The notes below the pieces were generated by a model that worked only from the letters and a program-made list of their open reading frames with translations, did not search any database and was not told where the DNA came from. 64,000 nt of DNA from Candidatus Magasanikiibacteriota bacterium (GTDB lineage Bacteria; Patescibacteriota; Patescibacteriia; Magasanikbacterales; UBA922). The stretch spans positions 262,612 to 326,611 of the forward strand of contig JBAYVA010000001.1 in assembly GCA_041674805.1 (NCBI GenBank), read 5' to 3'. Positions 26,401 through 54,952 of this stretch are shown piece by piece. Position 1 is the first letter of the stretch. Every line of letters begins with the position of its first letter. Position numbers and translations under genes: made by a program.

Positions 26401-29340
26401 TCAAAGTTGTCTAAACTCACATATTTCTTTAAAATCACAATACTGACAAACATGTTTATTTGGGGTAGCTTTAAAATCCCCCTTTTGAATTCGTTCCATT
26501 GCGTCAAATAGCTTGGCTTCTAACTTTTCTTTGTCTTTGTCTGTGCCTACAAAAGACATTTTCTTGTTTTCATTTAAATAAAAGAAAGTTAATTTATCTA
26601 TCTTTCCTAAATTTTGATATTGTGGCAAAGTTTCTACAGCAATTTGATAAATAAGCAATTGTTGTTTGTCATCAATCGTCAGCTTATCTTTTGGTTGTCC
26701 TGTCTTATAATCTATAATCTCCAATTTATTATCTCCCACAGCATCTATTCTATCTATTCTACCTTTGACAAGATACTCACCTATTTTTATTTTAAATCCG
26801 CCTTCGATTGTCACGGGTATTGTCCAATTGTTTTCTTGTGATTTGTAAAATTCTTTAAGCAATTCTTCACCTTTGGCAAAATATTCTTCTCTTTGATTTT
26901 TACTCTTGTACCAATCTGGAATCCATTTCCTTTTGTAAATTGCGAGTAATTCTTCTTGACTTGGTACTTTTGTTTTGCCAGTACTTTTGTCTTCGGTAAC
27001 AGTCTCAAACAAAGATACTTGCTTAGCACTATTTATATCTTGAACTTTTTCATAAAATTCTTGCAAAGTACTGTGAATAGTATTACCAAAACTAAAATGA
27101 GGGCTACCTTTACTTGGTAAATTCAAAACATAAGCCAACTTGTAATTGTAAGGACATTTTTGGTAAGTACTAATACGAGAATAAGAAAATATTTTTGGTG
27201 GAATGTATTCTATTTCTTCTTCAGCATTTTCTATTTGCGTATTTAGTTTCTTGATTTCTTGCATTAGAGTTTGTTCTTTTTCAACAAGTTTTTTTTCTTT
27301 ATTATCGAAATCAAGTTCAGCCAAAAAGCGACTTATTTTCTTTGCTCTAGTACCACCATAACTACTTGCACTGGTCAAAAATAATCTTTGTTTGGCACGA
27401 GTCACTGCCACATAAAAAAGACGACGCTCTTCCTGATAATGCAAATCATTATTTTCCAAAAACTTTTCTCTAATAAGTTCATCTGGCAAAGGTATGCCTT
27501 CACTCTTGCGTCTAGTTGGAAATCTTTCTTCCACCAAATTCACAATGAAAACATTTTTGTATTCTAAACCTTTTGAACCATGAACTGTAATAATATTAAC
27601 TGAGTCTGGTGTATCTTTGATTTGATTTATTTTGCCACCGTCCCCTGATTCGATGATGAATTCATAATTCTCAACAAAACCAGCCACATGAGCTCCCGGT
27701 ACATTTTCTTCATAAGTCCGAATAAGATCAAAAAATTGTTTCAAATGATAAATTTGTCTAATAACATCTTTGTTTCCTTTGTTTTCTTCAATAGTTAGAT
27801 ATGACAAATAGCCAATGCTTTCCATAAATTGATAAAGCAAACTGGTTGGCTTTTCAAATTTACTTTGTTTGATTCCTTCGTGACAGGCGTTCAATAATTT
27901 GTTAGCCATTTCTATCGCGTGATTAGACAAAAAGAATTCTTGAGCTCGCTTGAGTGTTTCATAATAAGACATACTTTTTCTCTTGGCAGTACTTGTCACT
28001 TTTTGCAAATCGTTTTGACTAAATTCCAAAAACGGCATTTTTAGCAAACGAAAAAATGCTTTATCATCATAAATATTAGTCAGAAGTGTGAGGAAATTGA
28101 AAGCATCAATCACAATATCTTGACGATAAAGTCCTGCAGATGCTAGATATTCAAAAGGAATGCCAAAGCTTTCCAAAGCGTTGCTAAATGGCTCTACGTG
28201 AGAATTAGCACGAACAAGAATTGCGAAATCATCCCAGTTACTATCTTTATCATTTTCTTTTATTTCCACTATTTTGTTTATCACGCCTACTACTTCTTCA
28301 TCAAGCGTTTCATAATGTAAATGTTCTATTTGAGTGTACAAATCTTTGAGGCCACTTTCTAATCTTTTACTAATTTGTAATTTTTCTTCTAGACGATGTG
28401 GATTATTATTTTTGATAGAGTTGTAAGCCAAATCCAAGATTTCTTGACCAGAACGATAATTGTCTGTCAGAACAATATTTTTAGCATCAGGATAATCTGT
28501 TTTGAAATTCATGATGATAGCGACATTGGAACCACGAAAAGAATAAATAGCTTGATCATCATCCCCTACTACTGTTAGTTTATTATTTTCTCCTGTTAAC
28601 AATTTTACCAATTGATATTGCGCCCAATTGACATCTTGAAACTCATCTACCATTATATATTTAAATCTTTTTTGTAATTTTTTGAGCACGTTTGGTCTAT
28701 CTTGCAAAAGTTTGACTGCATAAAAAATAATATCACCAAAATCCATTGACTCATTATCCAATAATAATTTTTGATATTTATTATAGGCATCAGCTAATTC
28801 AATCAATCTATTTTTTTCTTGTTTTTCAGCTTCATCTTTGTCCAAAATCAAAGACTTTACATAATCCAAATAAGCTTGCGGTGTTATCATTTCATCTTTG
28901 GCTTTGGAAAAGTGTGTAAGAAGTTCATGAATATAACGATTGGGACTACCCATTGGTCGATAATAATCAAAATTAAAATCATAAATATGTTCTCGCAAAA
29001 GCAACCAAGCATCTGTTTCATTTAATAATTTGAAATGATTTGGTAGGCCAATCTCAAGACCATATTCTTCCAAAACTTTTTGGCAAAAACTATGAAATGT
29101 AGAAATTTGCATTTCGGTATAATTGGCTTCAATCAGGTCGTCTACTCTATCTTGCATTTCTTGCGCTGCTTTGTCAGTAAAAGTCAAAGCCAAAATTTCT
29201 TCGGGCATAGCCAATTTTTGCTCGACAATGTGAGCAATTTTTTTGGTAATGACGGTAGTTTTGCCAGTACCAGCTCCAGCAATGATCAACAAATTACCGT
29301 CGTTGTATTCTATGGCTTCTTTTTGGTTTTTATTTAACAT
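26401..29340 (-). CDS. UvrD/PcrA-family helicase fused to a C-terminal PD-(D/E)XK (RecB/Cas4-like) nuclease domain (AddA-like single chain)
   Basis: Walker A GAGTGKTT and UvrD motifs (VDEFQD, TVVGDDDQAIYSFRG...VHGSKGLE). C-terminal GRIDRIDAV...EIIDYKTG...QLLIYQIAV plus CQYCDFKEIC cluster. Confidence 0.85.
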   Translation of the reverse strand: MLNKNQKEAIEYNDGNLLIIAGAGTGKTTVITKKIAHIVEQKLAMPEEILALTFTDKAAQEMQDRVDDLIEANYTEMQISTFHSFCQKVLEEYGLEIGLPNHFKLLNETDAWLLLREHIYDFNFDYYRPMGSPNRYIHELLTHFSKAKDEMITPQAYLDYVKSLILDKDEAEKQEKNRLIELADAYNKYQKLLLDNESMDFGDIIFYAVKLLQDRPNVLKKLQKRFKYIMVDEFQDVNWAQYQLVKLLTGENNKLTVVGDDDQAIYSFRGSNVAIIMNFKTDYPDAKNIVLTDNYRSGQEILDLAYNSIKNNNPHRLEEKLQISKRLESGLKDLYTQIEHLHYETLDEEVVGVINKIVEIKENDKDSNWDDFAILVRANSHVEPFSNALESFGIPFEYLASAGLYRQDIVIDAFNFLTLLTNIYDDKAFFRLLKMPFLEFSQNDLQKVTSTAKRKSMSYYETLKRAQEFFLSNHAIEMANKLLNACHEGIKQSKFEKPTSLLYQFMESIGYLSYLTIEENKGNKDVIRQIYHLKQFFDLIRTYEENVPGAHVAGFVENYEFIIESGDGGKINQIKDTPDSVNIITVHGSKGLEYKNVFIVNLVEERFPTRRKSEGIPLPDELIREKFLENNDLHYQEERRLFYVAVTRAKQRLFLTSASSYGGTRAKKISRFLAELDFDNKEKKLVEKEQTLMQEIKKLNTQIENAEEEIEYIPPKIFSYSRISTYQKCPYNYKLAYVLNLPSKGSPHFSFGNTIHSTLQEFYEKVQDINSAKQVSLFETVTEDKSTGKTKVPSQEELLAIYKRKWIPDWYKSKNQREEYFAKGEELLKEFYKSQENNWTIPVTIEGGFKIKIGEYLVKGRIDRIDAVGDNKLEIIDYKTGQPKDKLTIDDKQQLLIYQIAVETLPQYQNLGKIDKLTFFYLNENKKMSFVGTDKDKEKLEAKLFDAMERIQKGDFKATPNKHVCQYCDFKEICEFRQL

Positions 29341-29522
29341 ACTGAGCAGAGCTAAGTATCTTTCCTAAGAAAAATATCAATAATAAGAAAAAACTTCATC
29401 TATATTAAAATTGTTTAAGCTAGTATTATTCTACTACAATTATTCAAAAAAACAAAATCTCCCCAACTAAGAGAGATTCTATTCCGCGTCTATCCGCGTA
29501 AATATCCGTTTAATCTGCATTT

Positions 29523-29675
29523 TTAAACTCCACAATTACATCCACCACAACAACTATCTTCTTTGTCTGTTTCCTCATCACAAGCGCATTCACCTGTTTC
29601 ACAACAAGCGTCTTCTGCTACTTCTTTTTCATCTTTATCTTCTTTACAATCACAATTTTGACATGTATTTTGCAT
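29523..29675 (-). CDS. 50-aa cysteine-rich acidic small protein (metallothionein-like?), not in the ORF track
   Basis: ATG...TAA ORF: MQNTCQNCDCKEDKDEKEVAEDACCETGECACDEETDKEDSCCGGCNCGV, 11 Cys in 50 aa. It fills the only gap between the ABC exporter and the helicase. Confidence 0.4.
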   Translation of the reverse strand: MQNTCQNCDCKEDKDEKEVAEDACCETGECACDEETDKEDSCCGGCNCGV

Positions 29676-29729
29676 ATTTTTCTAAATTTAAAAATTATAA
29701 GTATATACTATAATTACAGAACAAAAATG

Positions 29730-31478
29730 TCAAGCCATAAAACCACCAACTTGAATATCCCACAAATTACGATAAATACCATTTTTTTTCTTCAAAAGTA
29801 CTTTGTGTGAACCTTGTTCAAGAATTCCACCTTGCTCTATCACCAAAATTCTATTTGAATTCATAATAGTTGAGAGTCTATGTGCGACGATAATGACAGT
29901 CTTGCCTTTCATCAGATTTCCCAAAGCATCTTGGATAAGCTTTTCTGACTTAGAATCTAGACTAGAAGTCGCTTCGTCCAAAATCAAAATTGGAGAATTT
30001 TTTAGTATTGCTCGAGCTATAGCTACACGCTGTCTTTCACCGCCCGAAAGTTTGATACCTCTTTCTCCTACCAAAGTATTGTAACCATCTGACAAATTCA
30101 AAATAAAATCATGAGCATTGGCTTGCTTGGCAACGGACATCACTTCTTCATCACTAGCGTCTGGTTTGGCATAACGAATATTTTCCATAATACTTCTATG
30201 AAAAAGCATCGGATCTTGTGGGACAAGACTGACATTTTGCCACAAACTTTCTTGAGTACACTTGGCAATGTTTTGTCCATCTATCAGAATTTTTCCACCA
30301 GAAATATCATGCTGACGTAAAAGCAATTTTACAATCGTAGACTTACCTGCACCTGACGAACCAACCAAAGCTATTTTTTCTTGAGGTTTGATTACCAAAT
30401 CCATTTTTCTAATTATTTCTCTAGTTTTGTTATAAGCAAAAGAAACATCTTTGAATTCTATTTTACCTGTGGTAACTTGTAATTTTTTGGCATTTTTAAC
30501 ATCTTGTATATCATAAGGCATATTTAGTATTTCGGTCATCTCTTCAGCGTCAGCCAGTGACTCATAAAAATCTCTAATCACACGACCAAAGCCAAAAAAC
30601 TTTTCAAAAATAATAATAAGATAAGATTGAATCAAAATAAAATCACCAACTGTAATACTACCAGCTTGCCAAACTTTGACAGCATAAAACAACATCACGA
30701 TTTCCAACAAAATCATCAGCATCCATTGTACACCATCAAACCAAGTAGAAATGTCCCAAGAAAATTTTCTTATTTTCCTTAGATCTTCTGTTTTTTGTTC
30801 AAATTCATTACACTCTCTACCATAACCAACCAACAACTTTACATTGGTATTATTAGTAAAAGAATCAGCCAAAAAAGCTCCAACTTTAGAATCAAGCTGG
30901 CTTCTCTCAAAATCATATTTTAATTTGAATTTACTAAAAAAGTAACTAGTCAAAACAAAGATGAATATCCAAGAAAGTATTATTAAAGCAAAAAATTTAT
31001 TACGACTAAATAAGACAATAGAAATAAGTGTAACATTGACAATGATAGGCAAAAGATCCCAAATTATTCTATCTGAAATTCTATCAAAAGCTTGTACAAA
31101 TCTACCAACTTTTTTTACCAGAGAACCTACAAAACTGTTGTTGAAAAAAGAAAAAGAATGTTTGTGAACTTTGGAAAAACAAGCATCATTCAAATCTTTT
31201 AGACTATCTGTACTAAATTTTATGTACAAAAAAGCCATGACACGAATAAAAAACCAATGTGAAATTTTTATACCCAAAATAATAAATAATGTGGTATAGA
31301 GAATCTCAACATTAGGATTGGTAGACAAGACATCAAAAAACTTTTTGTACCAATAAGGAGCCAATATTGAAAAAGCATCACCAATCAATAACAACAAAAA
31401 CATAGACATAAAGCTCCATTTGTATTTCCAAGCTTGTTGCCAATAAATTTTCAAAGTTATTTTGGTATTATTTTTCAT
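29730..31478 (-). CDS. ABC transporter, fused permease/ATPase (exporter type, MsbA-like)
   Basis: N-terminal 6-TM domain. NBD with GSSGAGKST, LSGGERQRVAIARAIL and ILILDEATSSLD. The track ORF begins with TTG; ATG at MKNNTKI is the likely start. Confidence 0.9.
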   Translation of the reverse strand: MKNNTKITLKIYWQQAWKYKWSFMSMFLLLLIGDAFSILAPYWYKKFFDVLSTNPNVEILYTTLFIILGIKISHWFFIRVMAFLYIKFSTDSLKDLNDACFSKVHKHSFSFFNNSFVGSLVKKVGRFVQAFDRISDRIIWDLLPIIVNVTLISIVLFSRNKFFALIILSWIFIFVLTSYFFSKFKLKYDFERSQLDSKVGAFLADSFTNNTNVKLLVGYGRECNEFEQKTEDLRKIRKFSWDISTWFDGVQWMLMILLEIVMLFYAVKVWQAGSITVGDFILIQSYLIIIFEKFFGFGRVIRDFYESLADAEEMTEILNMPYDIQDVKNAKKLQVTTGKIEFKDVSFAYNKTREIIRKMDLVIKPQEKIALVGSSGAGKSTIVKLLLRQHDISGGKILIDGQNIAKCTQESLWQNVSLVPQDPMLFHRSIMENIRYAKPDASDEEVMSVAKQANAHDFILNLSDGYNTLVGERGIKLSGGERQRVAIARAILKNSPILILDEATSSLDSKSEKLIQDALGNLMKGKTVIIVAHRLSTIMNSNRILVIEQGGILEQGSHKVLLKKKNGIYRNLWDIQVGGFMA

Positions 31479-31792: not shown

Positions 31793-32215
31793 TCACAATG
31801 GGGGCTTTACCGAAGAATGGTGTTGAATGGCTCTGCCAAACACCACCACAAAGCTGAACCGAGCTACAAGAGGATGATCGGAACCCTCCACTTTAAACTC
31901 GTATATACCAGACGTAACAAAAATAAACAGAAAATTATGATGCACTTCTTCGACTACTCGGCACTGTGGCCGCTTAGCCAAAAAGTGAATCATATACATC
32001 AAAACGCCTTCATGCGTTTTGATGTGTTGACCACAAAAAGTTGGAAGAAAAGAGATACTACGTAGGTGATAAAGTCTGCAAACAGTCTTGATATCTCCAC
32101 TGTTCACAGCACCAACCCACCTCCCTAAAAAAGCTGTATTGCGCCGCCACGACTCTGTCGCGGCAGCTACAAATAAAAACAACACCAAGAAAGGCACTGT
32201 TGCCAAAAGATCCAC
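31793..32215 (-). CDS. candidate 140-aa protein with hydrophobic N-terminus, GC-rich (putatively acquired)
   Basis: GTG start 5 nt after AGGAGG, downstream of a TTGACA-N17-TATGAT promoter. Begins MDLLATVPFLVLFLFVAAATESW. No homology recognised, and an antisense ORF also exists. Confidence 0.3.
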   Translation of the reverse strand: MDLLATVPFLVLFLFVAAATESWRRNTAFLGRWVGAVNSGDIKTVCRLYHLRSISFLPTFCGQHIKTHEGVLMYMIHFLAKRPQCRVVEEVHHNFLFIFVTSGIYEFKVEGSDHPLVARFSFVVVFGRAIQHHSSVKPPL

Positions 32216-32233
32216 CTGGACCTCCTAGAAATG

Positions 32234-32440
32234 CGACTTCACAACGTGAGAACTTCTCACGCCATTCAGTCGCTGGTTTCTATCTAAAAAATAGACAAAA
32301 ATCAGCAACTGAATTTTTTGGCACGCACAAAATCATACTCTCCGACATATCCACTGTCAATTACTATATCCTTGACAGAGTGTAATTTGTCGTTCTATTT
32401 GTAAAAGTTCTCTATACAAAAAAATACACCTAATTTAATA
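32234..32440. repeat. direct repeat copy 1 (~205 bp) of the promoter/leader/terminator module
   Basis: Near-identical to 32648-32850; read directly. Confidence 0.9.
32332..32360 (-). promoter_or_regulatory. sigma70-type promoter P1 (TTGACA-N17-TATGAT); the -35 lies in a TTGACA-N7-TGTCAA palindrome
   Basis: On the minus strand: ttgacagtggatatgtcggagagtatgat. Confidence 0.5.
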
Positions 32441-32629: not shown

Positions 32630-32647
32630 GTGAGCCTCCGAAACGGC

Positions 32648-32850
32648 GACTTCGCAACGTGAGTACTTCCCACGCCATTCAGTCGCTAGTTTCTATCTAA
32701 AAAATAGACAAAAATCAGCAACTGAATTTTTTGGCACGCACAAAATAATACTCTTTGACATATCCACTGTCAATTACTTTACCCTTGACAAATTTCAATT
32801 TGTCGTTCTATTTGTAAAAGTTATTTATATAAAAAAATACACCTATTTTC
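32648..32850. repeat. direct repeat copy 2 (~205 bp)
   Basis: Near-identical to 32234-32440. Confidence 0.9.
32744..32772 (-). promoter_or_regulatory. sigma70-type promoter P2 (TTGACA-N17-TATTAT)
   Basis: On the minus strand: ttgacagtggatatgtcaaagagtattat. Confidence 0.5.
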
Positions 32851-34837: not shown

Positions 34838-36412
34838 CTATAAGTCATTTCCCGTATATGACATATTAAAACTCTTATTAATTAGAGGAAAATCAGGGAT
34901 TATATTGTTTAAACCAGCCTCACCCAAGGCTGACCAATTGACGAAAGAAGGATCTCTTGGAAATACTCTACTAATATTGCCTTGTGCGTCTGTAGCTACG
35001 AAATAGGCTATTTCTCCACGCCAACCTTCCACCATACTTACAGCGTAAGCACTTTTTTGCAAAATAAGGCTAGTAATATTGGCTACAATACTTTCTCCCT
35101 CAGGTATTTTTTGCAAAGATTCTTGTATTATTTCCAATGATTTACGAATTTCTTTTAGACGAATTTGAAATCTAGCATTGACATCACCATCTTCTTCTAC
35201 AGGTATTTGACCCATAGAAACTTCGGCGTAAGCAGCATAAGGATGATCTACGCGTGTATCATGTTTTACACCTACTGCACGGCCAGCAACACCCAGAGTA
35301 CCTTGATTATTAGCCACTTCAAGAGAAATGATACCAGTACCCTTCAAACGATTTAATACAGAAGCACTATTTTCAGCAATATCAACAACTTCTTCAAAGT
35401 CTTTACTAATATCTTTGAGGATTTTATTTAAATAATCTTTGTTTTCATTAGTTATATCTTTCTTTACTCCACCAACAACATTGACTTGGCGCAAAAATCT
35501 ACTGCCTGTTATTTTTTCATTTATTTGCATCATCATTTCACGCAAACGTCCACCATGAGCTCCACCAAAACTAAAACCAGTATCCATCATAATAGCCCCA
35601 ATATCACCAAAATGATTAGCCAATCTTTCAAGTTCAGCAAAAATGGTTCTCAAATACAAGGCACGTTTTGGAACATTAGTTCCTGCCAATTTTTCTACTG
35701 TCTGACAAAAAGCTAAGGAGTGACTAAAAGAACTATCACCAGAAATTTTTTCTGACAAACGTATTTTATTTTCCAAAGACAAAACTTCAAATAATTTTTC
35801 ACTACCTTTGTGAACATACCCCAAACGTGGCTCAAGTTGTACGATACTTTCTCCAGCCATACTAAAACGAAAATGACCAGGTTCGATAATACCAGCATGA
35901 ATTGGACCAACAGGAATTTCATAAATTCCCTCACCTTTTACTTCTTGAAATTCATATTTACCAGTCACTTCTTTTAATTTAGTTTTCCATTCAAAATCTT
36001 TTCTAAGAGGAAAAACATTACTTGGATAATTTTCATGCAAAATAAGTGGTCTATTGTCTGGAATATCTGTAGCTACTAGACCAAAGAAAGTCTGAATTCT
36101 TCTTTCGTAGTTTAATATTTCAGGTACAATGTTAGCCAATGAAGGAAACTCAGTAGTATTTTTCAATTCAATAAAAGGACAGATAAAAAAATCATCACCA
36201 GGTACAGCAAATAAATACCAGATTTTGAAAGCTCCTTTTTCTTTTCTTTCGTCTGTAGCGGTAACCAACTTAAGTGAAAGCTTTTTTTGATTATGTAACT
36301 CTCCAACAATTTCAGCTATTTGTGAAGAAGTTACTTCGAAGATAGCCAAATTATCATGATACTCTACATTAGCATTCTTTGGAAAGTATGATTGTATTTT
36401 TTCTTTTATCAT
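34838..36412 (-). CDS. fused NuoC/NuoD-like (HycE/HyfG-like) large subunit lacking [NiFe]-ligand cysteines
   Basis: N-terminal 30-kDa-like domain plus GPIHAGIIEPGHFRF, where [NiFe] hydrogenases have RxCGxCxxxH. There is no C-terminal DPCxxC. Confidence 0.75.
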   Translation of the reverse strand: MIKEKIQSYFPKNANVEYHDNLAIFEVTSSQIAEIVGELHNQKKLSLKLVTATDERKEKGAFKIWYLFAVPGDDFFICPFIELKNTTEFPSLANIVPEILNYERRIQTFFGLVATDIPDNRPLILHENYPSNVFPLRKDFEWKTKLKEVTGKYEFQEVKGEGIYEIPVGPIHAGIIEPGHFRFSMAGESIVQLEPRLGYVHKGSEKLFEVLSLENKIRLSEKISGDSSFSHSLAFCQTVEKLAGTNVPKRALYLRTIFAELERLANHFGDIGAIMMDTGFSFGGAHGGRLREMMMQINEKITGSRFLRQVNVVGGVKKDITNENKDYLNKILKDISKDFEEVVDIAENSASVLNRLKGTGIISLEVANNQGTLGVAGRAVGVKHDTRVDHPYAAYAEVSMGQIPVEEDGDVNARFQIRLKEIRKSLEIIQESLQKIPEGESIVANITSLILQKSAYAVSMVEGWRGEIAYFVATDAQGNISRVFPRDPSFVNWSALGEAGLNNIIPDFPLINKSFNMSYTGNDL

Positions 36413-36413
36413 A

Positions 36414-37859
36414 TTAGTATTGCAAAACAGCATTATTAATTAAAGTCTGCAAAAATGGTGGTAAATAAACACTCAAAATAACTATAATAGTAACAAATAA
36501 AATTTGTGGAATAAACAACCAAATATTATTTTCACCTTTTTCAATATTGTCTGGTTTTTCTCCAAAAAACATAGCTGTAAAATGTTTCAAAAAACTTACA
36601 AAAACTAAGGCGAGAAAAAATAAAGCAATCAAACTAACAACAGGATAATCTTTTATACCAGCTGACAAAATATAAAGCTTGGTCATAAACATACCAAATG
36701 GTGGTACACCTGTCACAATCAGAAAACCAATAAGGGAGAGTACACCAGTCACAGGCAAGACTTTCAAAGCTCCTTTGACATTGAAAATTTTGGCAGAACT
36801 ATATTTTAATAACAAATTTCCTGAAGATAAAAAGAGTACAACTTTGACACAAGAATGATAAACTAAATGGAGTATGGCTGCAAAAATACCTAATCCTCCA
36901 AAACCAAAACCAAGTGCCATTACACCAGCATTTTCAATACTAGAATAAGCAAGCAATCTTTTGTAATTTTTGGCATTGAACATAATCAAAGCTGAGACAA
37001 CGATAGACAATAAACCAAAAACAATCAATAGAGTTTGACTAAACAAAGTTCCAACTGCAGTGTCTACAATAACTTTGTATCTAAGCATAATCACAAAAGC
37101 AATTGGTAACAAAGCGCCAGATAACAAAGCGCCTATAGGTGCTGGCGCTTTACTATAAGCATCTGGTTTCCAAGTGTGCATTGGAACAAAACCAATCTTA
37201 GTGCCATAACCAATAAGTACAAAAACGAAAGCAATCTTAGCAAGTAATGGATCAAGATGAACAGCATTGTTAGTCAATGTCTGCCAATCTACCAAACCAG
37301 CACTAGATAAATCAATAGAAGTAAAAAATAATAAAGTTCCAAAAAATCCCAAAAGTAAGCCAACAGAATTGATAATCAAATATTTCCAAGCTCCTTCAAT
37401 TGCTGATGGTTTATTGTAAAAACTTATCAAAAAGGCAGTAGACAGTGTAGTAGCTTCAATAGAAATCCAAGCAAAAATAGGATTACTAGAAGTAATTGCC
37501 AAAAACATTGCCACAAAAAACATATTCAACAAAACAAAATATTGTTTTACACGTGTAAAACCAATAATATTTTTTTGCATTTCTTGACGTAAATATTGTA
37601 CAGAATAAATAGTAGTAGCAAAACCAACAAAACCAAGAACTAAGACGATAATGGCACCCAAAGAATCAATTGAAAAGAATCTTCCAGAACCTGGTATATA
37701 AATTCCTAATGAGGCCACTTTCAAAGCTACAACAATAGACAATACCAAAGAAATTAACGAAGAAACAACTGAAACAACTTCAATAACGACCTTTCTTTTA
37801 GAAAGAAGGTTTATTATAGCTGCAATAAACAAAGTTATTATTATAAAAAAAATTTCCAT
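36414..37859 (-). CDS. NuoN/HyfF-like proton-conducting antiporter-type membrane subunit
   Basis: 481 aa with about 14 TM helices of the NuoL/M/N fold (WKPDAYSKAPAPIGALLSG). Confidence 0.7.
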   Translation of the reverse strand: MEIFFIIITLFIAAIINLLSKRKVVIEVVSVVSSLISLVLSIVVALKVASLGIYIPGSGRFFSIDSLGAIIVLVLGFVGFATTIYSVQYLRQEMQKNIIGFTRVKQYFVLLNMFFVAMFLAITSSNPIFAWISIEATTLSTAFLISFYNKPSAIEGAWKYLIINSVGLLLGFFGTLLFFTSIDLSSAGLVDWQTLTNNAVHLDPLLAKIAFVFVLIGYGTKIGFVPMHTWKPDAYSKAPAPIGALLSGALLPIAFVIMLRYKVIVDTAVGTLFSQTLLIVFGLLSIVVSALIMFNAKNYKRLLAYSSIENAGVMALGFGFGGLGIFAAILHLVYHSCVKVVLFLSSGNLLLKYSSAKIFNVKGALKVLPVTGVLSLIGFLIVTGVPPFGMFMTKLYILSAGIKDYPVVSLIALFFLALVFVSFLKHFTAMFFGEKPDNIEKGENNIWLFIPQILFVTIIVILSVYLPPFLQTLINNAVLQY

Positions 37860-37863
37860 ATTT

Positions 37864-38511
37864 TTAATCTTTTAATTTTTTCATTGAAGAAACATTTAGT
37901 GTTCCAAAATGTTTATACAACATTGAAATAAAAATTGAGGCAATCATAATCCAAATAAAAATATTAAAAATAATTCCCAATTGAAGAGAAGCCGACTGTT
38001 CCAACTCAGCAAAAACAGCAAACAACACAATACTATTTTCAAAAGACAAAATACCAATAATTTGTGACAAAGCACCTTTACGATTGACTATCAAAAATAA
38101 AGAAAGAAACATCGATGATAAAGCAAGAGACAACAACATTTGATGATCTGGTACGATACTAGTCAAAGGAACAAACTTATGTGAATGAGCTATAAAAATT
38201 AAAACAGCAATAACAATTAAGGTAATTGGTGTATTTAAATAAGTACTAACAGAAAAAGACAGAGCATACTTTTTGATCAGACTAATAAAAAACTTTGGTG
38301 CCACAATAACTTTGACAATCAACATCACAAATATAACTAATAACATCCACAAATCTTTGGTCTCAAAAAAAGAATTCAACAATATAATAACAACTACTAA
38401 TGATTGTAAAGCATATGCATATACAGCTGAAAAGTTTTTCTTCATTATCAGCAAAAAGACAACAGATAATAGAACTATCTCAGATAAAAATTGTAAAGTT
38501 AATAGATTCAT
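37864..38511 (-). CDS. HyfE-like membrane subunit (NuoK-related)
   Basis: 215 aa. GILSFENSIVLFAV...HFGTLNVSSMKKLK parallels the E. coli HyfE C-terminus (MENGSHLVL...HGTLDVNNLTALK). Confidence 0.65.
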   Translation of the reverse strand: MNLLTLQFLSEIVLLSVVFLLIMKKNFSAVYAYALQSLVVVIILLNSFFETKDLWMLLVIFVMLIVKVIVAPKFFISLIKKYALSFSVSTYLNTPITLIVIAVLIFIAHSHKFVPLTSIVPDHQMLLSLALSSMFLSLFLIVNRKGALSQIIGILSFENSIVLFAVFAELEQSASLQLGIIFNIFIWIMIASIFISMLYKHFGTLNVSSMKKLKD

Positions 38512-38544
38512 AAGTTATCACTATAAAAAACAAAGTTAGATGTT

Positions 38545-39480
38545 TTATTTAATTGAATAAATAAGTCCAATTGCCACAACATTGAAAATAAAAGAAATAA
38601 ATAATAAATCTGGCAATCTGAAAAATCTAAATTTAGCAATAGTTGATTCTAGCACAGCAATAGCACCACAAAATAAAAATATTTTTATTAAAAAATAAAA
38701 AATACTCAAAAATATTGCAGTAAATCCAACATTAGTATCAAAACCAAATGGAAAAAATAAATTAGCACCAAGTACCATAAAAATAAGTAATTTGTTGGCA
38801 GCAGCCCATTCCATAAGTGCCAAACGTTTACCAGAAAATTCCAAAATCATAGCTTCATGCACCATAGTCAATTCCAAATGAGTTGATGGATTATCAAAAG
38901 GAAATCTAGCATTCTCAGCTAACAAAACAATGAAAAAACCACAGAAAGCAAGTATTGCTGGCAAAAAGTATTGACCACTAATTGATTGACTAAAGTTTGC
39001 AATGTCAAAAAGGTTACTAGAACCAGCTATCAACGCCATAGTTAAAAGTGAAAAAATGAAGCCTCCTTCAGCCAAAGCTGAAATAGTCATTTCACGACTT
39101 GAACCAAAACCACCAAAAGCACTACCAGTATCGACACCAGCCAAAGCCATAAAAAAAGTACCAATAGCTAAAGTATAGACAACAAATAAAATATCACTAG
39201 TAACAAAACCTGCAATAAGTGGAAAAAAAATAGGTATACTAAAGCCAACCACCAAAGTTACAGCAAAAACAATATAAGGAGTAAATCGAAAAACCCAAGA
39301 AGCATCATTACTTATAACTTCATCTTTATGTAAAAGTTTCCAAATATCTCTATAAGGTTGAAAAATATTGGCACCTTGACGATTTTGTAACTTAGCTTTT
39401 ATTTTTCTAATGATACCAATACACAAAGGTGACAACGCTGGTACAAAAAATAATTGGATTATCCAAATAAATATTGACAT
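38545..39480 (-). CDS. NuoH/HycD-like membrane subunit
   Basis: LLAENARFPFDNPSTHLELTMVHEAMILEFSG matches the NuoH signature E..R.PFD..E.ESEL. Confidence 0.75.
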   Translation of the reverse strand: MSIFIWIIQLFFVPALSPLCIGIIRKIKAKLQNRQGANIFQPYRDIWKLLHKDEVISNDASWVFRFTPYIVFAVTLVVGFSIPIFFPLIAGFVTSDILFVVYTLAIGTFFMALAGVDTGSAFGGFGSSREMTISALAEGGFIFSLLTMALIAGSSNLFDIANFSQSISGQYFLPAILAFCGFFIVLLAENARFPFDNPSTHLELTMVHEAMILEFSGKRLALMEWAAANKLLIFMVLGANLFFPFGFDTNVGFTAIFLSIFYFLIKIFLFCGAIAVLESTIAKFRFFRLPDLLFISFIFNVVAIGLIYSIK

Positions 39481-39484
39481 AAAA

Positions 39485-40291
39485 TTATAATATTACGAGT
39501 AGAGCTAGCATAAGAGCTACAAAAATATAAGTGATATAAAGATCGATATTACCATTCTGTATAGTCTTAGCTTTTACAGATAACTTATTGATTACTATAT
39601 GTATAGGTTGATAAAAGTAAGTATTGTATATATTACTAATACTCAAAGTGATTGTTCTTGATTTTGGTAAATATCTATTTTGATCATCATAATATTCAAT
39701 GTTATGTTGAATAGTTGGTTTGAGTAAACCTTTGAAAATCAATATTATTGATCGTGAGAATCCTGTAGCTGTTATTTCAGCACGTGGAGTAAGATCTGTA
39801 CCACAATCCCAAGTATTGGTCTTACATTCTTTTTGTGTTTTGTTAATTACTTTTTTGAAAATTAAAATTACCAAAAAAGTAGAAACCACAAGCAAAAGAA
39901 AAATAAACATACCAGAGATTGAAGAAAATCCATTAGAAACACTCATACTTTGATTAGAAGAAACATTTACAGCAGAAGCTGAATCTTTGAAGATGCTCAA
40001 ACTTTGACTTATGATATTGATAAGACTAATTACATATCCAGAAAATATACCAAACAAAAGTGTCAACAATGCTAAAGCACCCATACCTAAACGCATAGAA
40101 AAAGGAGATTCTTTGGCATGTTTCACTTCCTTACTACGTGGACGAGCCAAAAAAGTAGCTGCAAAAGCTTTGACAAAACAAGCAAGTGCTAATCCCCCAG
40201 TAAATACCAATGATCCTGCTGCCAAAATAAATATCCATTGTGTTACAAAATGCATTTGATTTATTCCTTGAAACAAAGCTTGGTAAGTCAA
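39485..40291 (-). CDS. membrane protein, possibly the split C-terminal part of the NuoL/HyfB-like subunit
   Basis: Overlaps the upstream NuoL-like ORF by 4 nt (ATGA). 268 aa with TM segments. The two ORFs together total about 680 aa, similar to HyfB. Confidence 0.4.
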   Translation of the reverse strand: MTYQALFQGINQMHFVTQWIFILAAGSLVFTGGLALACFVKAFAATFLARPRSKEVKHAKESPFSMRLGMGALALLTLLFGIFSGYVISLINIISQSLSIFKDSASAVNVSSNQSMSVSNGFSSISGMFIFLLLVVSTFLVILIFKKVINKTQKECKTNTWDCGTDLTPRAEITATGFSRSIILIFKGLLKPTIQHNIEYYDDQNRYLPKSRTITLSISNIYNTYFYQPIHIVINKLSVKAKTIQNGNIDLYITYIFVALMLALLVIL

Positions 40292-41535
40292 CCACTCACT
40301 AAAAAACCATTAAACGGTGGCAAGGCAGAAATAGCAATTGAACCAATAAGAAAGAAGAAAGCTGTTTGTGGCATGTACTTTATTAGACCACCATATTCCT
40401 CCATATTACGAGTATGTACTTGATTTATTACTGACCCTGCACTCAAGAAAAGTAAAGCCTTGAAAATAGCATGATTAAGTGTGTGAAATAAGGCTGCACC
40501 AAGGCCAAGCAAAGCCAAAGCTGGTAAATTTAGAGAATAAAAAGTCAAAGCACTGCCCAAACCAAGCAAGATAATACCAATGTTTTCTATACTATGATAA
40601 GCGAGCAATCTCTTGATATCATGCTCAGTAAGAGCATACAAAACTCCAAGTAAAGATGAAATTGAACCAATCACTAATATTACTAATCCCCACCAATATG
40701 GTGCTGGAGCAAGAATGTCCAAAAACAATCTTACCATCATATAGATACCAGTCTTAATCATGACACCTGAGAGTATTGCTGAAACATGAGAAGGGGCAGC
40801 TGGATGAGCGGCTGGTAACCAAATATGCAATGGAATAATACCAGCTTTCAAGCCAAAACCAATAAAAGCAGAAACGAAAATAATATTTTTTATAAATGCT
40901 GGAACAAGAGCTATATTTTCTTTTATCACTAGAAAATCAAAAGAACCAATATACTTAAACAAAAGCAAAAAAGCTAAAATAATAAAAGCTGTACCAATAT
41001 AAGTCATCACCAAATACAAAAAACCTGCCTTTACATTATCTTGATCATTTTTTTCATAAACAATCAAGAAATATGAAGTCACCGCCATTATTTCCCAAAA
41101 AATAAGGAAAAAAAGAGCATTAGAAGATGTTACTACTAAAAGAACACTTGCAATAAAAATATTATAAAAAAATCCAAGAGCACCTATGCTATATTTTTTA
41201 TAGTAATGTCTTATGTAACCTATACCATATATAGAACAAAACAAAGCTATCAAAGAAATTACAAAAACAAAAAAACTAGACAACAAGTCAATATGAAAAG
41301 ACAAAGTGAAAAGTGAAAAAACAGATGTTTTTAGGTCAAACAACAAACTACTTTTTGTTAAAATTGATGTAATCGAAAAAATTAAACCCCATAAAGAACC
41401 AACAATCGCAAAAAAACTATTCCAACCATTTGCGTATTTATCATTTTTGAGGAAAAACAAAGAACCAACAGCTCCAACAAAAAATAAGGAAAGTAAAATA
41501 AAAAAGCTAATTGGTGAGGTAATGATTTCTAACAT
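40288..41535 (-). CDS. NuoL/HyfB/HycC-like antiporter-type membrane subunit (N-terminal part)
   Basis: NuoL/M/N core motifs (LHTLNHAIFKALLFLSAGSV, WLPAAHPAAPSHVSAILSGV). Confidence 0.7.
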   Translation of the reverse strand: MLEIITSPISFFILLSLFFVGAVGSLFFLKNDKYANGWNSFFAIVGSLWGLIFSITSILTKSSLLFDLKTSVFSLFTLSFHIDLLSSFFVFVISLIALFCSIYGIGYIRHYYKKYSIGALGFFYNIFIASVLLVVTSSNALFFLIFWEIMAVTSYFLIVYEKNDQDNVKAGFLYLVMTYIGTAFIILAFLLLFKYIGSFDFLVIKENIALVPAFIKNIIFVSAFIGFGLKAGIIPLHIWLPAAHPAAPSHVSAILSGVMIKTGIYMMVRLFLDILAPAPYWWGLVILVIGSISSLLGVLYALTEHDIKRLLAYHSIENIGIILLGLGSALTFYSLNLPALALLGLGAALFHTLNHAIFKALLFLSAGSVINQVHTRNMEEYGGLIKYMPQTAFFFLIGSIAISALPPFNGFLVSG

Positions 41536-41536
41536 A

Positions 41537-42079
41537 TTATTTTTTTTGTGAAGGTTTATTTTCTATTGTTTCGAGAATTTTAAGTAAGGATTGAAGAATA
41601 AAAGTAGGTGTAGGAGGGTCACCAGGAATTTGATAATCTACAGGTATCACTGAATCGACACCATTTAAAACAGCATAAGAATCTTTGAATATTCCTCCAT
41701 CAATAGCGTCATCCCCTACTGCTACTACAATTTTAGGGTTAGGTGTACCATCATAAGCATCTTTGAGTGCCTTAGCCATATTTTTCGCCACAGGACCTGT
41801 TACAAGTAACATGTCAGCGTGTCTTGGAGATGCCACAAAATGAATACCAAAACGTTCAACATCATAGAAACTGTTAGACAAAGCTACTAGTTCTTGTTCA
41901 CAAGAATTATCTGATCCAGCATCAATTTGTCTGATAGCCAAAGAACCCCTAAATAATTTTTTTACTTTATCTTGTATTTTTTCTCCAATTTCAAAAAAAT
42001 CCTTTTGGTTAAGATCATCTTTTGAAATAGAAATTATATTTTTTGGTGTTTTGAATATTTTTACAAAAAGTTTCAACAT
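41537..42079 (-). CDS. NuoB/HycG-like small subunit lacking Fe-S cluster cysteines
   Basis: RFGIHFVASPRHADMLLVTGPV...VVAVGDDAIDGGIF...GVDSVIPVDYQIPGDPP. NuoB has GACA and PGCPP at these positions, so the Cys are replaced by Asp. Confidence 0.75.
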   Translation of the reverse strand: MLKLFVKIFKTPKNIISISKDDLNQKDFFEIGEKIQDKVKKLFRGSLAIRQIDAGSDNSCEQELVALSNSFYDVERFGIHFVASPRHADMLLVTGPVAKNMAKALKDAYDGTPNPKIVVAVGDDAIDGGIFKDSYAVLNGVDSVIPVDYQIPGDPPTPTFILQSLLKILETIENKPSQKK

Positions 42080-45166: not shown

Positions 45167-45237
45167 ATAATTTAATAAAAAGTTTAAAGTTTAAAGTATC
45201 TGTGTTAATCCGCGTCATTATCTGATTATTCTGCGTC

Positions 45238-46725
45238 TTATTTCTTAAATTCTTCACAAACACCTTTCAAATCCGCAATAATACTATCATCCCATTCACC
45301 TTTAGAGATTTTTTCTAACAAAGATTGGTGACCACCTCTAACAAAATCCAAAAATTTTTCTTCTGTTTTCAAAATATCAGTAACAGCAACATCATCAAAA
45401 TAACCGCTATCTACTGCAAAAATAGAAGCAACTTGATCTTCAACATGCATTGGACTATATTGAGGTTGTTTCATAAGTTCTACTACTCTAGCACCTCTAT
45501 CCAATTGTTTCTTTGTTTCGACATCTAGATCACTAGCAAATTGAGCAAAAGCTTCAAGTTCACGATATTGAGCAAGAGCAAGCTTAATTTTACCAGAAAC
45601 TTTTTTCATTGGTTTGGTTTGAGCAGCACCACCTACACGAGAAACTGAAATACCGACATTAACAGCTGGACGAATACCCTTGAAAAACAAATCTGTTTCC
45701 AAGAAAATTTGTCCATCAGTGATAGAAATTACGTTGGTTGGAATATAAGCAGTCACGTCAGAAGCTTGTGTTTCAATAATAGGCAAAGCGGTGATAGATC
45801 CACCACCATGTTCTTTGTTCAAGTTACAAGCACGTTCCAAAAGACGGGAATGAAGATAAAAAACATCTCCAGGATAAGCTTCACGTCCTGGTGGGCGTCT
45901 TAGAAGCAAAGAAATTTCACGATAAGCCCAAGCTTGTTTTGTCAAATCATCATAAACGATTAAGACATCTTCACCTTTATCAGCGAAGTATTCAGCCATA
46001 GTTACACCAGCATATGGAGCAATAAAAGACATAGCAGCAGGATCAGATGCACCAGCGACAACAACAGTTGTATATTCCATAGCACCATTTTCTTCAAGTT
46101 TAGCTACGATACGAGCTACTTTTGACTCTTTTTGTCCAATAGCTACATAAATACATTTCATGTTTTGACCTTTTTGGTTGATGATAGCATCAATTGCAAT
46201 AGCTGTTTTACCAGTTTGACGATCACCAATGATAAGCTCACGTTGTCCACGTCCAATTGGAATCATAGCGTCAATAGCTTTGATACCAGTCTGTACAGGA
46301 ACACCAACAGGTTGACGACTCATCACACCAGGAGCTGTTTTTTCGATAGGATAAAATTCTTTTGTAACAATATCACCTTTACCATCAATAGCTTGACCAA
46401 GAGCATTTACCACACGACCAATCACTTTTTCACCAACTGGTACTGACAAAATTCTACCAGTTCTTTTGACAGTGTCACCTTCTTTGATTTTTTCATATTC
46501 ACCAAGAATCATGGCACCAACAGTCTCTTCTTCCAAATTCAAAGCTACACCCATGATACCACCTGGGAATTCAAGCATCTCTTGAGATTGACAACTTGTC
46601 AGACCACTCATACGAGCAATACCGTCCCCTACTTCAATAACAGTACCGACTTCTTCTACTTCTACTGTTTTTTGAAAAGCAGAAATATGTTTTTTTAGTT
46701 CTTCGATTACTTGATTTGTAGACAT
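45238..46725 (-). CDS. atpA: F1 ATP synthase alpha subunit
   Basis: [12 protein letters not shown]-loop; 495 aa. Confidence 0.97.
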
Positions 46726-54018: not shown

Positions 54019-54216
54019 TTAGTCAGCCATTTCATCGTTGGGGGGATCACACGAAGTAGCCGAGAACGCCTCGACATCATCGAAGTGTACTGTACAACCC
54101 TGGCAACGATAGTAAAGCACACGCCCCTTCTTCGTTCCCTGAGGAGTCTCCCTTACAGCTTCATAACCACCATCATACCCGCAAACAGCACAGGTAAAAT
54201 TTGAATCCATCGGCAT
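54019..54216 (-). CDS. small C4 zinc-ribbon protein (66 aa), GC-rich relative to the genome
   Basis: AAGGAG-N7-ATG; MPMDSNFTCAVCGYDGG...YRCQGCTVHFDD (CxxC-N17-CxxC). Local GC is about 50%, against roughly 30% background. Confidence 0.5.
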   Translation of the reverse strand: MPMDSNFTCAVCGYDGGYEAVRETPQGTKKGRVLYYRCQGCTVHFDDVEAFSATSCDPPNDEMAD

Positions 54217-54271: not shown

Positions 54272-54952
54272 CTATCCGCGTCTAATAATAACAACAAATT
54301 CCCCCTTATCCTTCACCTGCATTTCAGCCAAACCACCGACAGTCCCACGATAAATCGTTTCAAATTTTTTGGTAAGTTCCCGACAAATACAAACTTTTGT
54401 TTCAGGTGCTAAAAACTCTTGCATACTTGCCACGGCTTTGAGAATTCTGTGATTTGATTCATAAAAACAAACTGTCTGTTCAATATTTGCTAAATTTTTG
54501 AAATATGATTGTCTACCATTTTTTTGAGGAGGAAAACCAAGGAAAATAAATTTGTCAGTAGGAAAACCAGAAATAGAGAGTGCTGTCACTACAGCAGAAA
54601 CACCTGGTATAGGTACAATTTCTATTTCAGAATTATTTTCCAATATTTCAAAAATCAACTTGTTTCCAGGATCAGAAATTCCTGGGGTACCAGCATCAGA
54701 GACAAGAGCTAAATTCTTACCTTCTTCAAGTAATTCTTTTATTTCAGAAACTTTTCTTTCGTCACTATGTTGATGATAACTAATCGTCTTAGTAGTGATT
54801 TCATAGTGATTCAACAATTTTTGGGTGACTCGAGTATCTTCACACAAAATAAAATCAACGCTTTTCAAAGTTTCCAAAGCACGCAAAGTAATATCACCTA
54901 GATTACCAATCGGTGTAGCGACTATATACAATTTTCCAAAATCAGTCGTCAT
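54272..54952 (-). CDS. rsmI: 16S rRNA (cytidine1402-2'-O)-methyltransferase RsmI
   Basis: LYIVATPIGNLGDITLRALETLK. The track ORF begins with TTG; the likely start is MTTDFGK. The internal start coordinate is approximate. Confidence 0.85.
   Translation of the reverse strand: MTTDFGKLYIVATPIGNLGDITLRALETLKSVDFILCEDTRVTQKLLNHYEITTKTISYHQHSDERKVSEIKELLEEGKNLALVSDAGTPGISDPGNKLIFEILENNSEIEIVPIPGVSAVVTALSISGFPTDKFIFLGFPPQKNGRQSYFKNLANIEQTVCFYESNHRILKAVASMQEFLAPETKVCICRELTKKFETIYRGTVGGLAEMQVKDKGEFVVIIRRG

Follow-up and report, generated by a model that had tools for sequence, protein, structure and literature searches.

A lineage-restricted, acidic cysteine-rich micro-gene beside an Atm1-like ABC exporter gene in Candidatus Magasanikbacteria and its possible metallothionein-like role

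Here, we describe a 50-codon gene for an acidic, cysteine-rich peptide from an ultra-small bacterium of groundwater. The gene lies in the window, by which we mean the whole 64,000-nucleotide (64-kb) stretch of a Candidatus Magasanikiibacteriota contig (JBAYVA010000001.1) that was analysed. The open reading frame (ORF), at 29523..29675 on the minus strand, is a real, lineage-restricted gene under purifying selection in Candidatus Magasanikbacteria (Patescibacteria, or Candidate Phyla Radiation, CPR), and the peptide family to which it belongs qualifies as metallothionein-like by sequence and is an orphan by homology. Across related genomes, the gene persistently adjoins that of an ATP-binding cassette (ABC) exporter, and this adjacency suggests that the two products work together. 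Of the possible roles, we tentatively favour that of a metal-thiolate (metallothionein-like) partner of an Atm1-like exporter in a buffer-plus-efflux module, a reading that we regard as plausible but short of probable. An earlier interpretation of this ORF, made without database searches (hereafter the sequence-only reading), is partly supported as a whole.

Peptide gene and its conservation

The ORF runs from ATG to TAA, and its translation (MQNTCQNCDCKEDKDEKEVAEDACCETGECACDEETDKEDSCCGGCNCGV) confirmed the strand, extent, 50-residue length, and 11 cysteines given by the sequence-only reading. These Cys residues (positions 5, 8, 10, 24, 25, 30, 32, 42, 43, 46, and 48) form an N-terminal CxxCxC, a middle CCxxxxCxC, and a C-terminal CCGGCxCGV module, while the 5.4-kDa product, well under the low-mass bound for metallothioneins (< about 10 kDa), carries 16 Asp and Glu residues at a net charge of about -12.6 and lacks both aromatic residues and His. 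At 22%, the Cys content is some 39-fold that of the 51 long ORFs in the window (0.57%), in which no 50-residue stretch holds more than four Cys, and the second-richest small ORF in the window has 8% Cys. Just 0.04 ORFs with at least eight Cys are expected from shuffled windows, and the Cys density of the peptide is well beyond chance. Moreover, its codon usage agrees with that of the genome (for example, TGT 10 : TGC 1), the window having a G+C content of about 30%. The ORF is not preceded by a Shine-Dalgarno motif, though this is uninformative because such a motif lies upstream of just two of the 51 long ORFs, with A/T-rich start regions found instead. As for its having been called unannotated, an identical protein is already on record in GenBank under MFA7244823.1 ('hypothetical protein WC070_01415 [Candidatus Magasanikbacteria bacterium]'), encoded by a contig of 743,922 bp, and so the ORF was missing only from the ORF track used in the sequence-only reading.

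Relatives of the peptide, at related loci that we compared with the window and denote by L-numbers (L001, L011, L025, and so on), were sought by word-indexed search, profile search, genome scan, metagenome scan, and the fetching of loci anchored on the ABC protein. The word-indexed search returned two relatives, the profile search, run against 1.84 billion representative proteins, yielded five matches with E<=0.001, including one repeat artefact, and the genome and metagenome scans added a RIFOXYD12/ACD variant. Four more came from the ABC-anchored loci, these being 43-aa and 45-aa ORFs directly after the ABC gene (L030 and L031), a copy truncated by the contig end (L027), and forms located upstream of the ABC gene. 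All ten intact relatives are on Candidatus Magasanikbacteria-type contigs. A phage origin was considered as well and ruled out, as viral contigs held no relative of the peptide.

Conservation had been set beforehand as the refuting test, and here we found the ORF intact in every relative carrying one, with all indels in frame (multiples of three) and with its integrity persisting at ABC identities as low as 54%. Across the five closest sequences, 11/11 Cys are invariant, and the length differences are in-frame indels in the Lys/Glu/Asp linkers. A coding signature, the other check proposed, was also apparent, since synonymous changes exceed non-synonymous changes per site in the three pairs compared (pS 0.17-0.23 versus pN 0.07-0.09; pN/pS 0.31-0.47). 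In the close pairs, all non-synonymous changes fall outside the Cys clusters, and synonymous TGT/TGC, GGA/GGT, and GTT/GTA changes are observed between relatives. Fisher's test gave p = 0.015 for the best pair and was non-significant for the remaining two, because there are so few sites.

Peptide family

Members of the family are 39-50 aa long, with 6-11 Cys (13-26% of residues, as CxC, CC, and CxxC clusters), zero or one aromatic residue, zero or one His, and a net charge of -8 to -13.5. Three modules can be recognized, namely an N-terminal M-x-N-(x)-C-x-N-C, a middle CC..(E)CxC, and a C-terminal CCGG(x)CxC[GC]V. Foremost among these in conservation is the C-terminal module, with the N-terminal region being variable or absent. 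The module combinations differ from member to member, and Cys modules have been both gained and lost. In the L031 peptide, the Cys number is down to six, and the widest alignment retains one invariant Cys column.

By the operational sequence criteria for metallothioneins (small size, Cys richness in CxC, CC, and CxxC arrangements, and scarcity of aromatic residues and His), the label of metallothionein-like given in the sequence-only reading holds throughout the family. As regards homology, it did not hold, as neither Pfam at E<=1, NCBIfam at E<=10, nor the PADLOC models gave a match to the peptide, and neither did the PDB at E<=10 when searched with the family profile. An AlphaFold model (from a 3-sequence alignment) gave a predicted local distance difference test (pLDDT) score of 50 and a predicted template modelling (pTM) score of 0.27, values too low to be informative, with no autonomous fold predicted. 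Metal-free metallothioneins are likewise unstructured.

Association with the ABC exporter gene

In the window, the peptide gene and the ABC gene share a strand, with a 54-nt gap between the TGA stop of the latter and the start of the former. This verified the co-directional placement described earlier. The other end of the peptide gene is 182 nt from the start of a UvrD/PD-(D/E)XK helicase-nuclease gene (26401..29340). Within the close clade, where the ABC proteins are 69-100% identical, no other gene intervenes between the ABC gene and the peptide downstream of it in the window, L011, L014/L023, L019, L030, and L031, while inserted genes separate the two elsewhere, these being a 327-aa orphan (L001-L005), a 250-aa protein (L027), or two AAA-type ATPases (L016). 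The gene beyond the peptide varies, and is either the helicase, a sulfatase, or a 320-aa orphan.

In distant Magasanikbacteria (ABC proteins 54-61% identical), the backbone of the locus reads ATP synthase, ABC, variable slot, helicase, and DciA, with nothing Cys-rich downstream of the ABC gene. Instead, our six-frame scan of these lineages revealed acidic Cys-rich micro-ORFs, homologous or analogous to the peptide gene, which lie directly upstream of the ABC gene and possess terminators of their own. The L034 ORF (MANCSNCEMPMENESEQCSCNNELCFHCCECDTDCECACSEKE) contains 11 Cys and has MxNCxNC and CCE..ECAC in common with the window peptide, and the L033 ORF (MECTNCGAPMEGESCPGCGGCPECCTCGGGDETDTGEEN) contains 8 Cys. 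A weaker candidate at L032:4643-4795 (50 aa, MAKCDKCGVEFADGTEHTCTPATEEAPAATEEVVATEAPAEEAPAATPEA; GenBank MFH1286892.1, hypothetical protein), which likewise precedes the ABC orthologue, combines a CxxC...HxC knuckle with a tail rich in Ala, Pro, and Glu, and could be a family member that has degenerated or diverged. The L033 and L034 ORFs (39 and 43 aa) are uncalled as genes and absent from a 15-billion-protein collection, and hence micro-ORF families such as this are undercounted in searches of protein databases.

When a rule of 25-80 aa, at least four Cys, and a net charge of -5 or below was applied in six frames over 174 kb from 14 loci, it recovered only the ABC-adjacent peptides and one unrelated, zinc-ribbon-like ORF. 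Moreover, co-occurrence with the exporter could be checked on loci fetched through the ABC protein only, which avoids ascertainment through the peptide, and here five to six of eight lineages carry the peptide (L025 and L028 are without it). While the sequence-only reading had ranked the ABC neighbour as a minor alternative, this association is in fact the strongest contextual signal for the peptide, which shares a terminator-bounded unit with the ABC gene in the window's clade and keeps its adjacency when located upstream. A functional tie can be argued because relocation between upstream and downstream positions retains the adjacency to the ABC gene.

ABC exporter

The exporter gene (29730..31478, minus strand) encodes an ABCB-type half-transporter of 582 aa from its ATG, in which Pfam finds ABC_membrane and ABC_tran only, with no C39 peptidase domain, and which attained no NCBIfam equivalog cut-off. 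Foremost among the matches to its membrane domain (residues 1-321) was NaAtm1 (68 bits, E 8e-18), described as an 'ATM1-type heavy metal exporter', followed by ABCB7 (51) and TM288 (46), while Sav1866 and MsbA did not reach the E<=1e-10 threshold. The protein is thus an ABCB half-transporter with a membrane domain nearest to Atm1-type proteins. As ABC_membrane already begins at residue 38 when the 594-aa TTG-start reading is scanned, equivalent to about residue 26 in the 582-aa protein, an HMT-1-type N-terminal extension could not be accommodated. In all, 6309 orthologue-level matches at E<1e-100 were found across Patescibacteria, and with thousands of such orthologues the exporter is far more widespread than the peptide.

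Transporters of the Atm1, ABCB6, and HMT-1 kind bind Cd(II) as complexes with glutathione or phytochelatin (both Glu/Cys/Gly peptides) in an Arg-lined cavity (PMC11143254). We compared the glutathione-contact set of hABCB6 (R435, R439, N498, Q501, N545, T549, and R552) and the equivalent NaAtm1 positions (R206, R210, N269, Q272, D316, M320, and R323) with the exporter, where the corresponding residues are K185, D189, D248, Q251, F295, R299, and R302. These positions are almost invariant among 121 CPR orthologues. By its closest sequence match, the exporter can be called Atm1-like, and not demonstrably a glutathione-type Atm1.

Transcription signals

Upstream of the peptide ORF, a consensus scan (10/12 matches) located a sigma-70-like element, TTGACA-17 nt-TAGTAT, at 29705..29733 on the minus strand, its -35 box (29728..29733) overlapping the TGA stop of the ABC gene. 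Both boxes are kept in L011, L014, L030, and L031 despite a diverged spacer sequence, and in peptide-free L025 the -10 box is missing, from which we infer promoter activity. Between this putative promoter and the ORF is a short A/T-rich 5' leader (29676..29704, minus strand) without a Shine-Dalgarno motif, and its last 20 nt or so (ttaatttttaaatttagaaaaat) stay joined to the ORF despite upstream gene insertions (L016/L018/L020 junctions).

Beyond the ORF, the 3' untranslated region (UTR; 29483..29522, minus strand) has phased units of about 10 nt that end in ACGCGGA-TAG-ACGCGGA at 29483..29499, for which 0.01 chance matches are expected in the window. This motif is kept with the peptide in L001, L011, L014, and L030, whatever the downstream gene, and is absent in L015 and L031. 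There follows an intrinsic terminator (29446..29484, minus strand) that is common to the ABC gene and the peptide, with a stem (AAUCUCUC/GGGAGAUU) and then a U-run. Its fold energy is -23.4 kcal/mol (z = -4.4), and its stem is kept via compensatory changes in L015 and L031, with a variable loop. The terminator call rests on folding and comparison, the stem criteria of the promoter/terminator scanner having missed it. No terminator lies between the ABC gene and the peptide in the window's clade. In peptide-free L025, the same hairpin follows the ABC stop by about 30 nt, which places the peptide inside the terminator-bounded unit of the ABC gene, ahead of a terminator ancestral to the latter, and co-transcription of the exporter with the peptide as partner is probable. 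At the gathering thresholds, Rfam gave nothing in the 64 kb, tRNAs included, and around the locus its matches at E<=1 were at chance level.

As a side observation, the heptamer ACGC[AG]GA occurs seven times in the 64 kb, and five of the occurrences are on the coding strand just after or at the stops of three genes, these being the peptide gene (29483..29522, minus strand), an ATP synthase alpha-type gene at 45238..46725 (45209..45236, minus strand), and a TP_methylase gene at 54272..54952 (54275..54281, minus strand). The heptamer may be a site for an RNA-binding protein or a small repeat element.

Proposed role and alternative explanations

In the role that we tentatively favour, the peptide would be cytoplasmic, intrinsically disordered, and strongly acidic, and its clustered Cys residues (CxxCxC, CC..CxC, and CCGGCxCGV) would bind thiophilic metal ions as metal-thiolate clusters in the fashion of metallothioneins, with the Asp/Glu linkers keeping it soluble. 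The alpha-domain of mammalian metallothionein holds an M(II)4Cys11 cluster, whose 11 Cys ligands equal in number the Cys of the window peptide. Transcripts of the peptide would arise both at its own promoter and through read-through out of the ABC gene, both genes ending at the common terminator, and the peptide and the Atm1-like ABCB exporter would form a conserved two-gene module, in which the former buffers or presents thiol-bound cargo and the latter removes it, by analogy with glutathione or phytochelatin and Atm1, HMT1, or ABCB6. Of this scheme, the binding of metal, the choice of metal, and any functional interplay between peptide and exporter are what we infer. As a further and doubtful extension, the encoded Cys/Glu/Asp/Gly peptide might replace glutathione or phytochelatin as the thiol partner or co-transported ligand of the Atm1-like exporter in these presumably glutathione-poor, ultra-small bacteria. 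If true, such a thiol partner would let the exporter handle thiophilic metals, persulfide, or Fe-S (iron-sulfur) species, and the pair would represent an undescribed two-gene 'encoded phytochelatin plus exporter' module.

Several observations weigh against a metallothionein-like role in partnership with the exporter. With a Cys count that is not fixed, a single defined cluster geometry is unlikely, and there is no homology to the curated metallothionein families searched, including the SmtA/BmtA-type Metallothio_Pro, nor to solved structures. Neither a metal sensor, a metal pump, nor another metal-resistance gene was found among the ORFs scanned in the 64-kb window. As the ABC-to-helicase interval is a variable slot with unrelated genes, the adjacency may be partly positional, and most Patescibacteria carrying exporter orthologues have no known peptide homologue. 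Of the seven glutathione contacts, two are identical in the exporter (Q and R), two are conservative (K and D), and three are different, though with some uncertainty given an alignment of about 20% identity. Moreover, the cavity residues are uncorrelated with the presence or absence of the peptide, F295 marking the closest clade only. Finally, the gene is dispensable, as the ORF is cleanly lost in L025/L026 (same gene order, ABC 72% identical) and absent from the ABC-anchored locus L028.

Given the persistent adjacency to the exporter on either side, the peptide could instead be cargo, secreted unmodified and leaderless by the ABCB exporter and serving as an extracellular metallophore, a surface or host-interaction factor, or a signal. 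It is co-directional with the ABC gene, with no intervening terminator in the window's clade, and C39-free ABCB half-transporters such as NisT and McjD do export peptides of 21-57 aa. However, a signal peptide, a double-glycine leader, and a C39 domain are all absent (the sequence-only reading was correct on the leader and double-glycine motif, the lone GG lying within the C-terminal CCGGC), and a variable N-terminus with a conserved C-terminus is the reverse of leader-plus-core precursors. Extracellularly, oxidation of the free thiols would be expected. Cavities of the Atm1/ABCB6 type have volumes of about 2300-2600 cubic angstroms, and Cd:PC3 (PC, phytochelatin), at about 2000, strains them already (PMC11143254), whereas a 5.4-kDa peptide would occupy about 6500 cubic angstroms, as estimated from its mass. 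Moreover, the exporter is near-universal in Patescibacteria and its cavity signature is invariant with or without the peptide gene, which points to another primary substrate. Together, the size of the peptide relative to the cavity and the invariance of the latter argue against whole-peptide transport as the main job of the exporter, and we consider the cargo explanation rather unlikely. The very high density of reactive thiols and the Atm1-like membrane domain would also suit a thiol/redox or Fe-S peptide in place of a metal store, acting either as a low-molecular-weight-thiol surrogate (redox buffer or persulfide carrier) or as an Fe-S ligand, with the exporter link then reflecting a proposed glutathione-polysulfide or [2Fe-2S](GS)4 cargo of the Atm1 family. 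Biosynthetic capacity is minimal in CPR bacteria, and glutathione synthesis is commonly missing from them, which can be counted in favour of this role. The substrates of the Atm1 family include glutathione polysulfide and glutathione-coordinated Fe-S species (PMC4156053, PMC9329353, PMC6424863). Even so, the peptide shows no ferredoxin, rubredoxin, or CCG-domain spacing and no Pfam match, its variable Cys number (6-11) is unlike a defined Fe-S site, and no Fe-S assembly or sulfur-transfer genes were found nearby in the window ORF scans, making such a function unlikely in our estimation.

Much less probable is a ribosomally synthesized and post-translationally modified peptide (RiPP) precursor of the ranthipeptide/SCIFF-like, lanthipeptide, or thiazole type, exported by the ABC protein after the action of maturases encoded elsewhere. 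While a small Cys-rich ORF with some Ser and Thr adjoining an ABC exporter gene could be so construed, NCBIfam at E<=10 gave neither SCIFF (TIGR03973) nor any other match, genes for radical-SAM, LanB/C/M, YcaO, and MNIO proteins are absent among 45 window ORFs (Pfam) and from the gene lists of the related loci, and the peptide lacks a conserved leader and the exporter a C39 domain. We give slightly less credence still to two remaining explanations, those of an acidic DNA-mimic-type regulator of the UvrD/PD-(D/E)XK helicase-nuclease and of a non-functional chance ORF within a 3' UTR RNA element. Regarding the former, a peptide of about 50 aa with a charge of about -12.6 is encoded directly upstream of a RecB-like helicase-nuclease, yet a terminator separates the two genes, the helicase adjacency is lost in L001 (sulfatase downstream) and in L033/L034 (peptide upstream of the ABC gene), and a DNA mimic has no need of conserved Cys clusters. 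As for a chance ORF, the Cys-cluster segments are highly identical at the nucleotide level among close relatives and a conserved motif lies in the 3' UTR, but in-frame indels, synonymous changes, and the integrity of the ORF at the largest ABC divergence, together with the lack of any Rfam match above chance, argue otherwise. Should the favoured metallothionein-like partnership be wrong, the peptide gene would still stand as a clean case of an orphan micro-gene that evolves fast, is conserved, and has defined transcription signals.

Comparison with known systems

Like the metallothioneins SmtA/BmtA, MymT, and plant types 1 and 2 (with CCGGNCGC-like N-termini), the peptides are below 6 kDa, Cys-clustered, and practically free of aromatic residues and His, with Cys-rich modules between Cys-free linkers, modular gain and loss of clusters, and no autonomous fold predicted. 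Unlike them, the family is extremely acidic, has no detectable homology to any metallothionein family, is coupled to an ABC exporter gene and does not stand alone, and lacks an adjacent SmtB/ArsR-type regulator. Presumably, the peptide is also without the His ligands and the zinc-finger-like fold of SmtA/BmtA. By these sequence-level comparisons, the family is unusual among metallothionein-like peptides in being very acidic and paired with an ABC exporter. As of 2020, biological function had been investigated for just two bacterial metallothioneins, with detoxification of zinc by SmtA and of copper by MymT as the functions known to date (PMC7387436).

An acidic Glu/Cys/Gly-rich thiol peptide encoded beside an ABCB half-transporter nearest to NaAtm1 also recalls glutathione or phytochelatin with Atm1, HMT-1, or ABCB6, in the last of which Cd(II) sits within a positively charged cavity, bound as a tetrathiolate by two PC2 molecules (PMC11143254). 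Unlike phytochelatin, the window peptide is ribosomally encoded with alpha-peptide bonds, and at 39-50 aa the family far exceeds PC2/PC3 and the cavity described. The exporter, in turn, differs from the Atm1-family pocket in keeping 2/7 glutathione contacts and from HMT-1 in lacking the hydrophobic N-terminal extension described for that subfamily (PMC2944878).

Peptidase-containing ABC transporters (PCAT) and bacteriocin ABC transporters, NisT/LanT, and McjD offer another likeness, in that a small peptide gene adjoins a same-strand ABCB-type exporter gene, but the leader, double-glycine site, C39 domain, maturase genes, and immunity genes of such systems are all missing at this locus. Furthermore, the would-be cargo is anionic and thiol-rich, unlike known bacteriocins, and the window exporter is a conserved housekeeping-type orthologue throughout Patescibacteria, unlike dedicated peptide exporters. 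Precursors of the SCIFF ranthipeptides (six cysteines in forty-five residues) are similar in length (about 45 aa) and in their many Cys, though they differ in taxon and Cys spacing, and here there is neither an NCBIfam match nor an adjacent radical-SAM maturase. Our full-text literature searches turned up no publication in which metallothionein or cysteine-rich small proteins are connected with Patescibacteria, and no metallothionein is reported from the CPR. Taken with the Atm1-like exporter, the peptide suggests how biosynthesis-poor organisms might cope with thiophilic metals or sulfur species where groundwater is rich in metals.

Neighbouring genes and other features

By lineage, the variable slot holds the 320/327-aa acidic orphan, two paralogous AAA-type ATPases (with weak PADLOC PDC-S01 matches), a DUF5671 protein, or a NUDIX hydrolase (slot coordinates L016:563-3325, L001:3569-4552, L011:7303-8265, L015:292-1038, L027:6824-7576, L033:5801-6717, and L034:5832-6308). 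The 320/327-aa orphan adjoins the peptide, on either side, in three to four lineages (L011, L015, and L001, and possibly L027). It is not in the window, has no Pfam, NCBIfam, or PADLOC match and just two relatives by word search, and its AlphaFold model has a pLDDT of 45.

Adjoining the ATP synthase operon is a hydrogenase-like membrane complex (34838..42079, minus strand), with a fused Complex1_30kDa+49kDa subunit, an Oxidored_q6 subunit, and antiporter-like subunits. Its large subunit has three Cys and no CxxC motif, and its small subunit has one Cys. With subunits so Cys-poor, neither a NiFe site nor a usual Fe-S cluster is possible, and the complex is an Ehr/complex-I-like module and not a NiFe enzyme, probably an Ehr/Mbx-like, redox-inactive, ion-translocating one. 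A role for the peptide as a nickel chaperone for this 'hydrogenase' was ruled out, given the Cys-poor subunits and a cluster that is not beside the peptide in L001, L011, and L023. Likewise, a link to an ArsB/CitMHS permease was ruled out, as the permease is replaced by a Na/H exchanger or others in several peptide-bearing lineages. Elsewhere in the window, a 65-aa ORF (54019..54216, minus strand; MPMDSNFTCAVCGYDGGYEAVRETPQGTKKGRVLYYRCQGCTVHFDDVEAFSATSCDPPNDEMAD) with two CxxC pairs and an acidic tail is zinc-ribbon-like and unrelated to the peptide family.

In the stretch upstream of the ABC gene (31.5-32.9 kb), two non-coding RNA genes had been considered and were ruled out in favour of a SnoaL/DUF4440-like coding sequence and a duplicated promoter and leader. 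The coding sequence is a 140-aa GTG-start ORF (31793..32215, minus strand) with an elevated G+C content of about 0.39 and a rare Shine-Dalgarno-like taggagg, and it resembles a SnoaL_3/DUF4440/CaMKII_AD-type gene at the equivalent site in L025/L026/L031 (Pfam E = 0.004, sub-cut-off). Its promoter and structured 5' leader are duplicated (32233..32436 versus 32646..32849; 204 nt, 92% identical), with the duplicate preceding a 60-aa ORF without a match. Overall, this region looks like a horizontally acquired gene together with its decayed duplicate.

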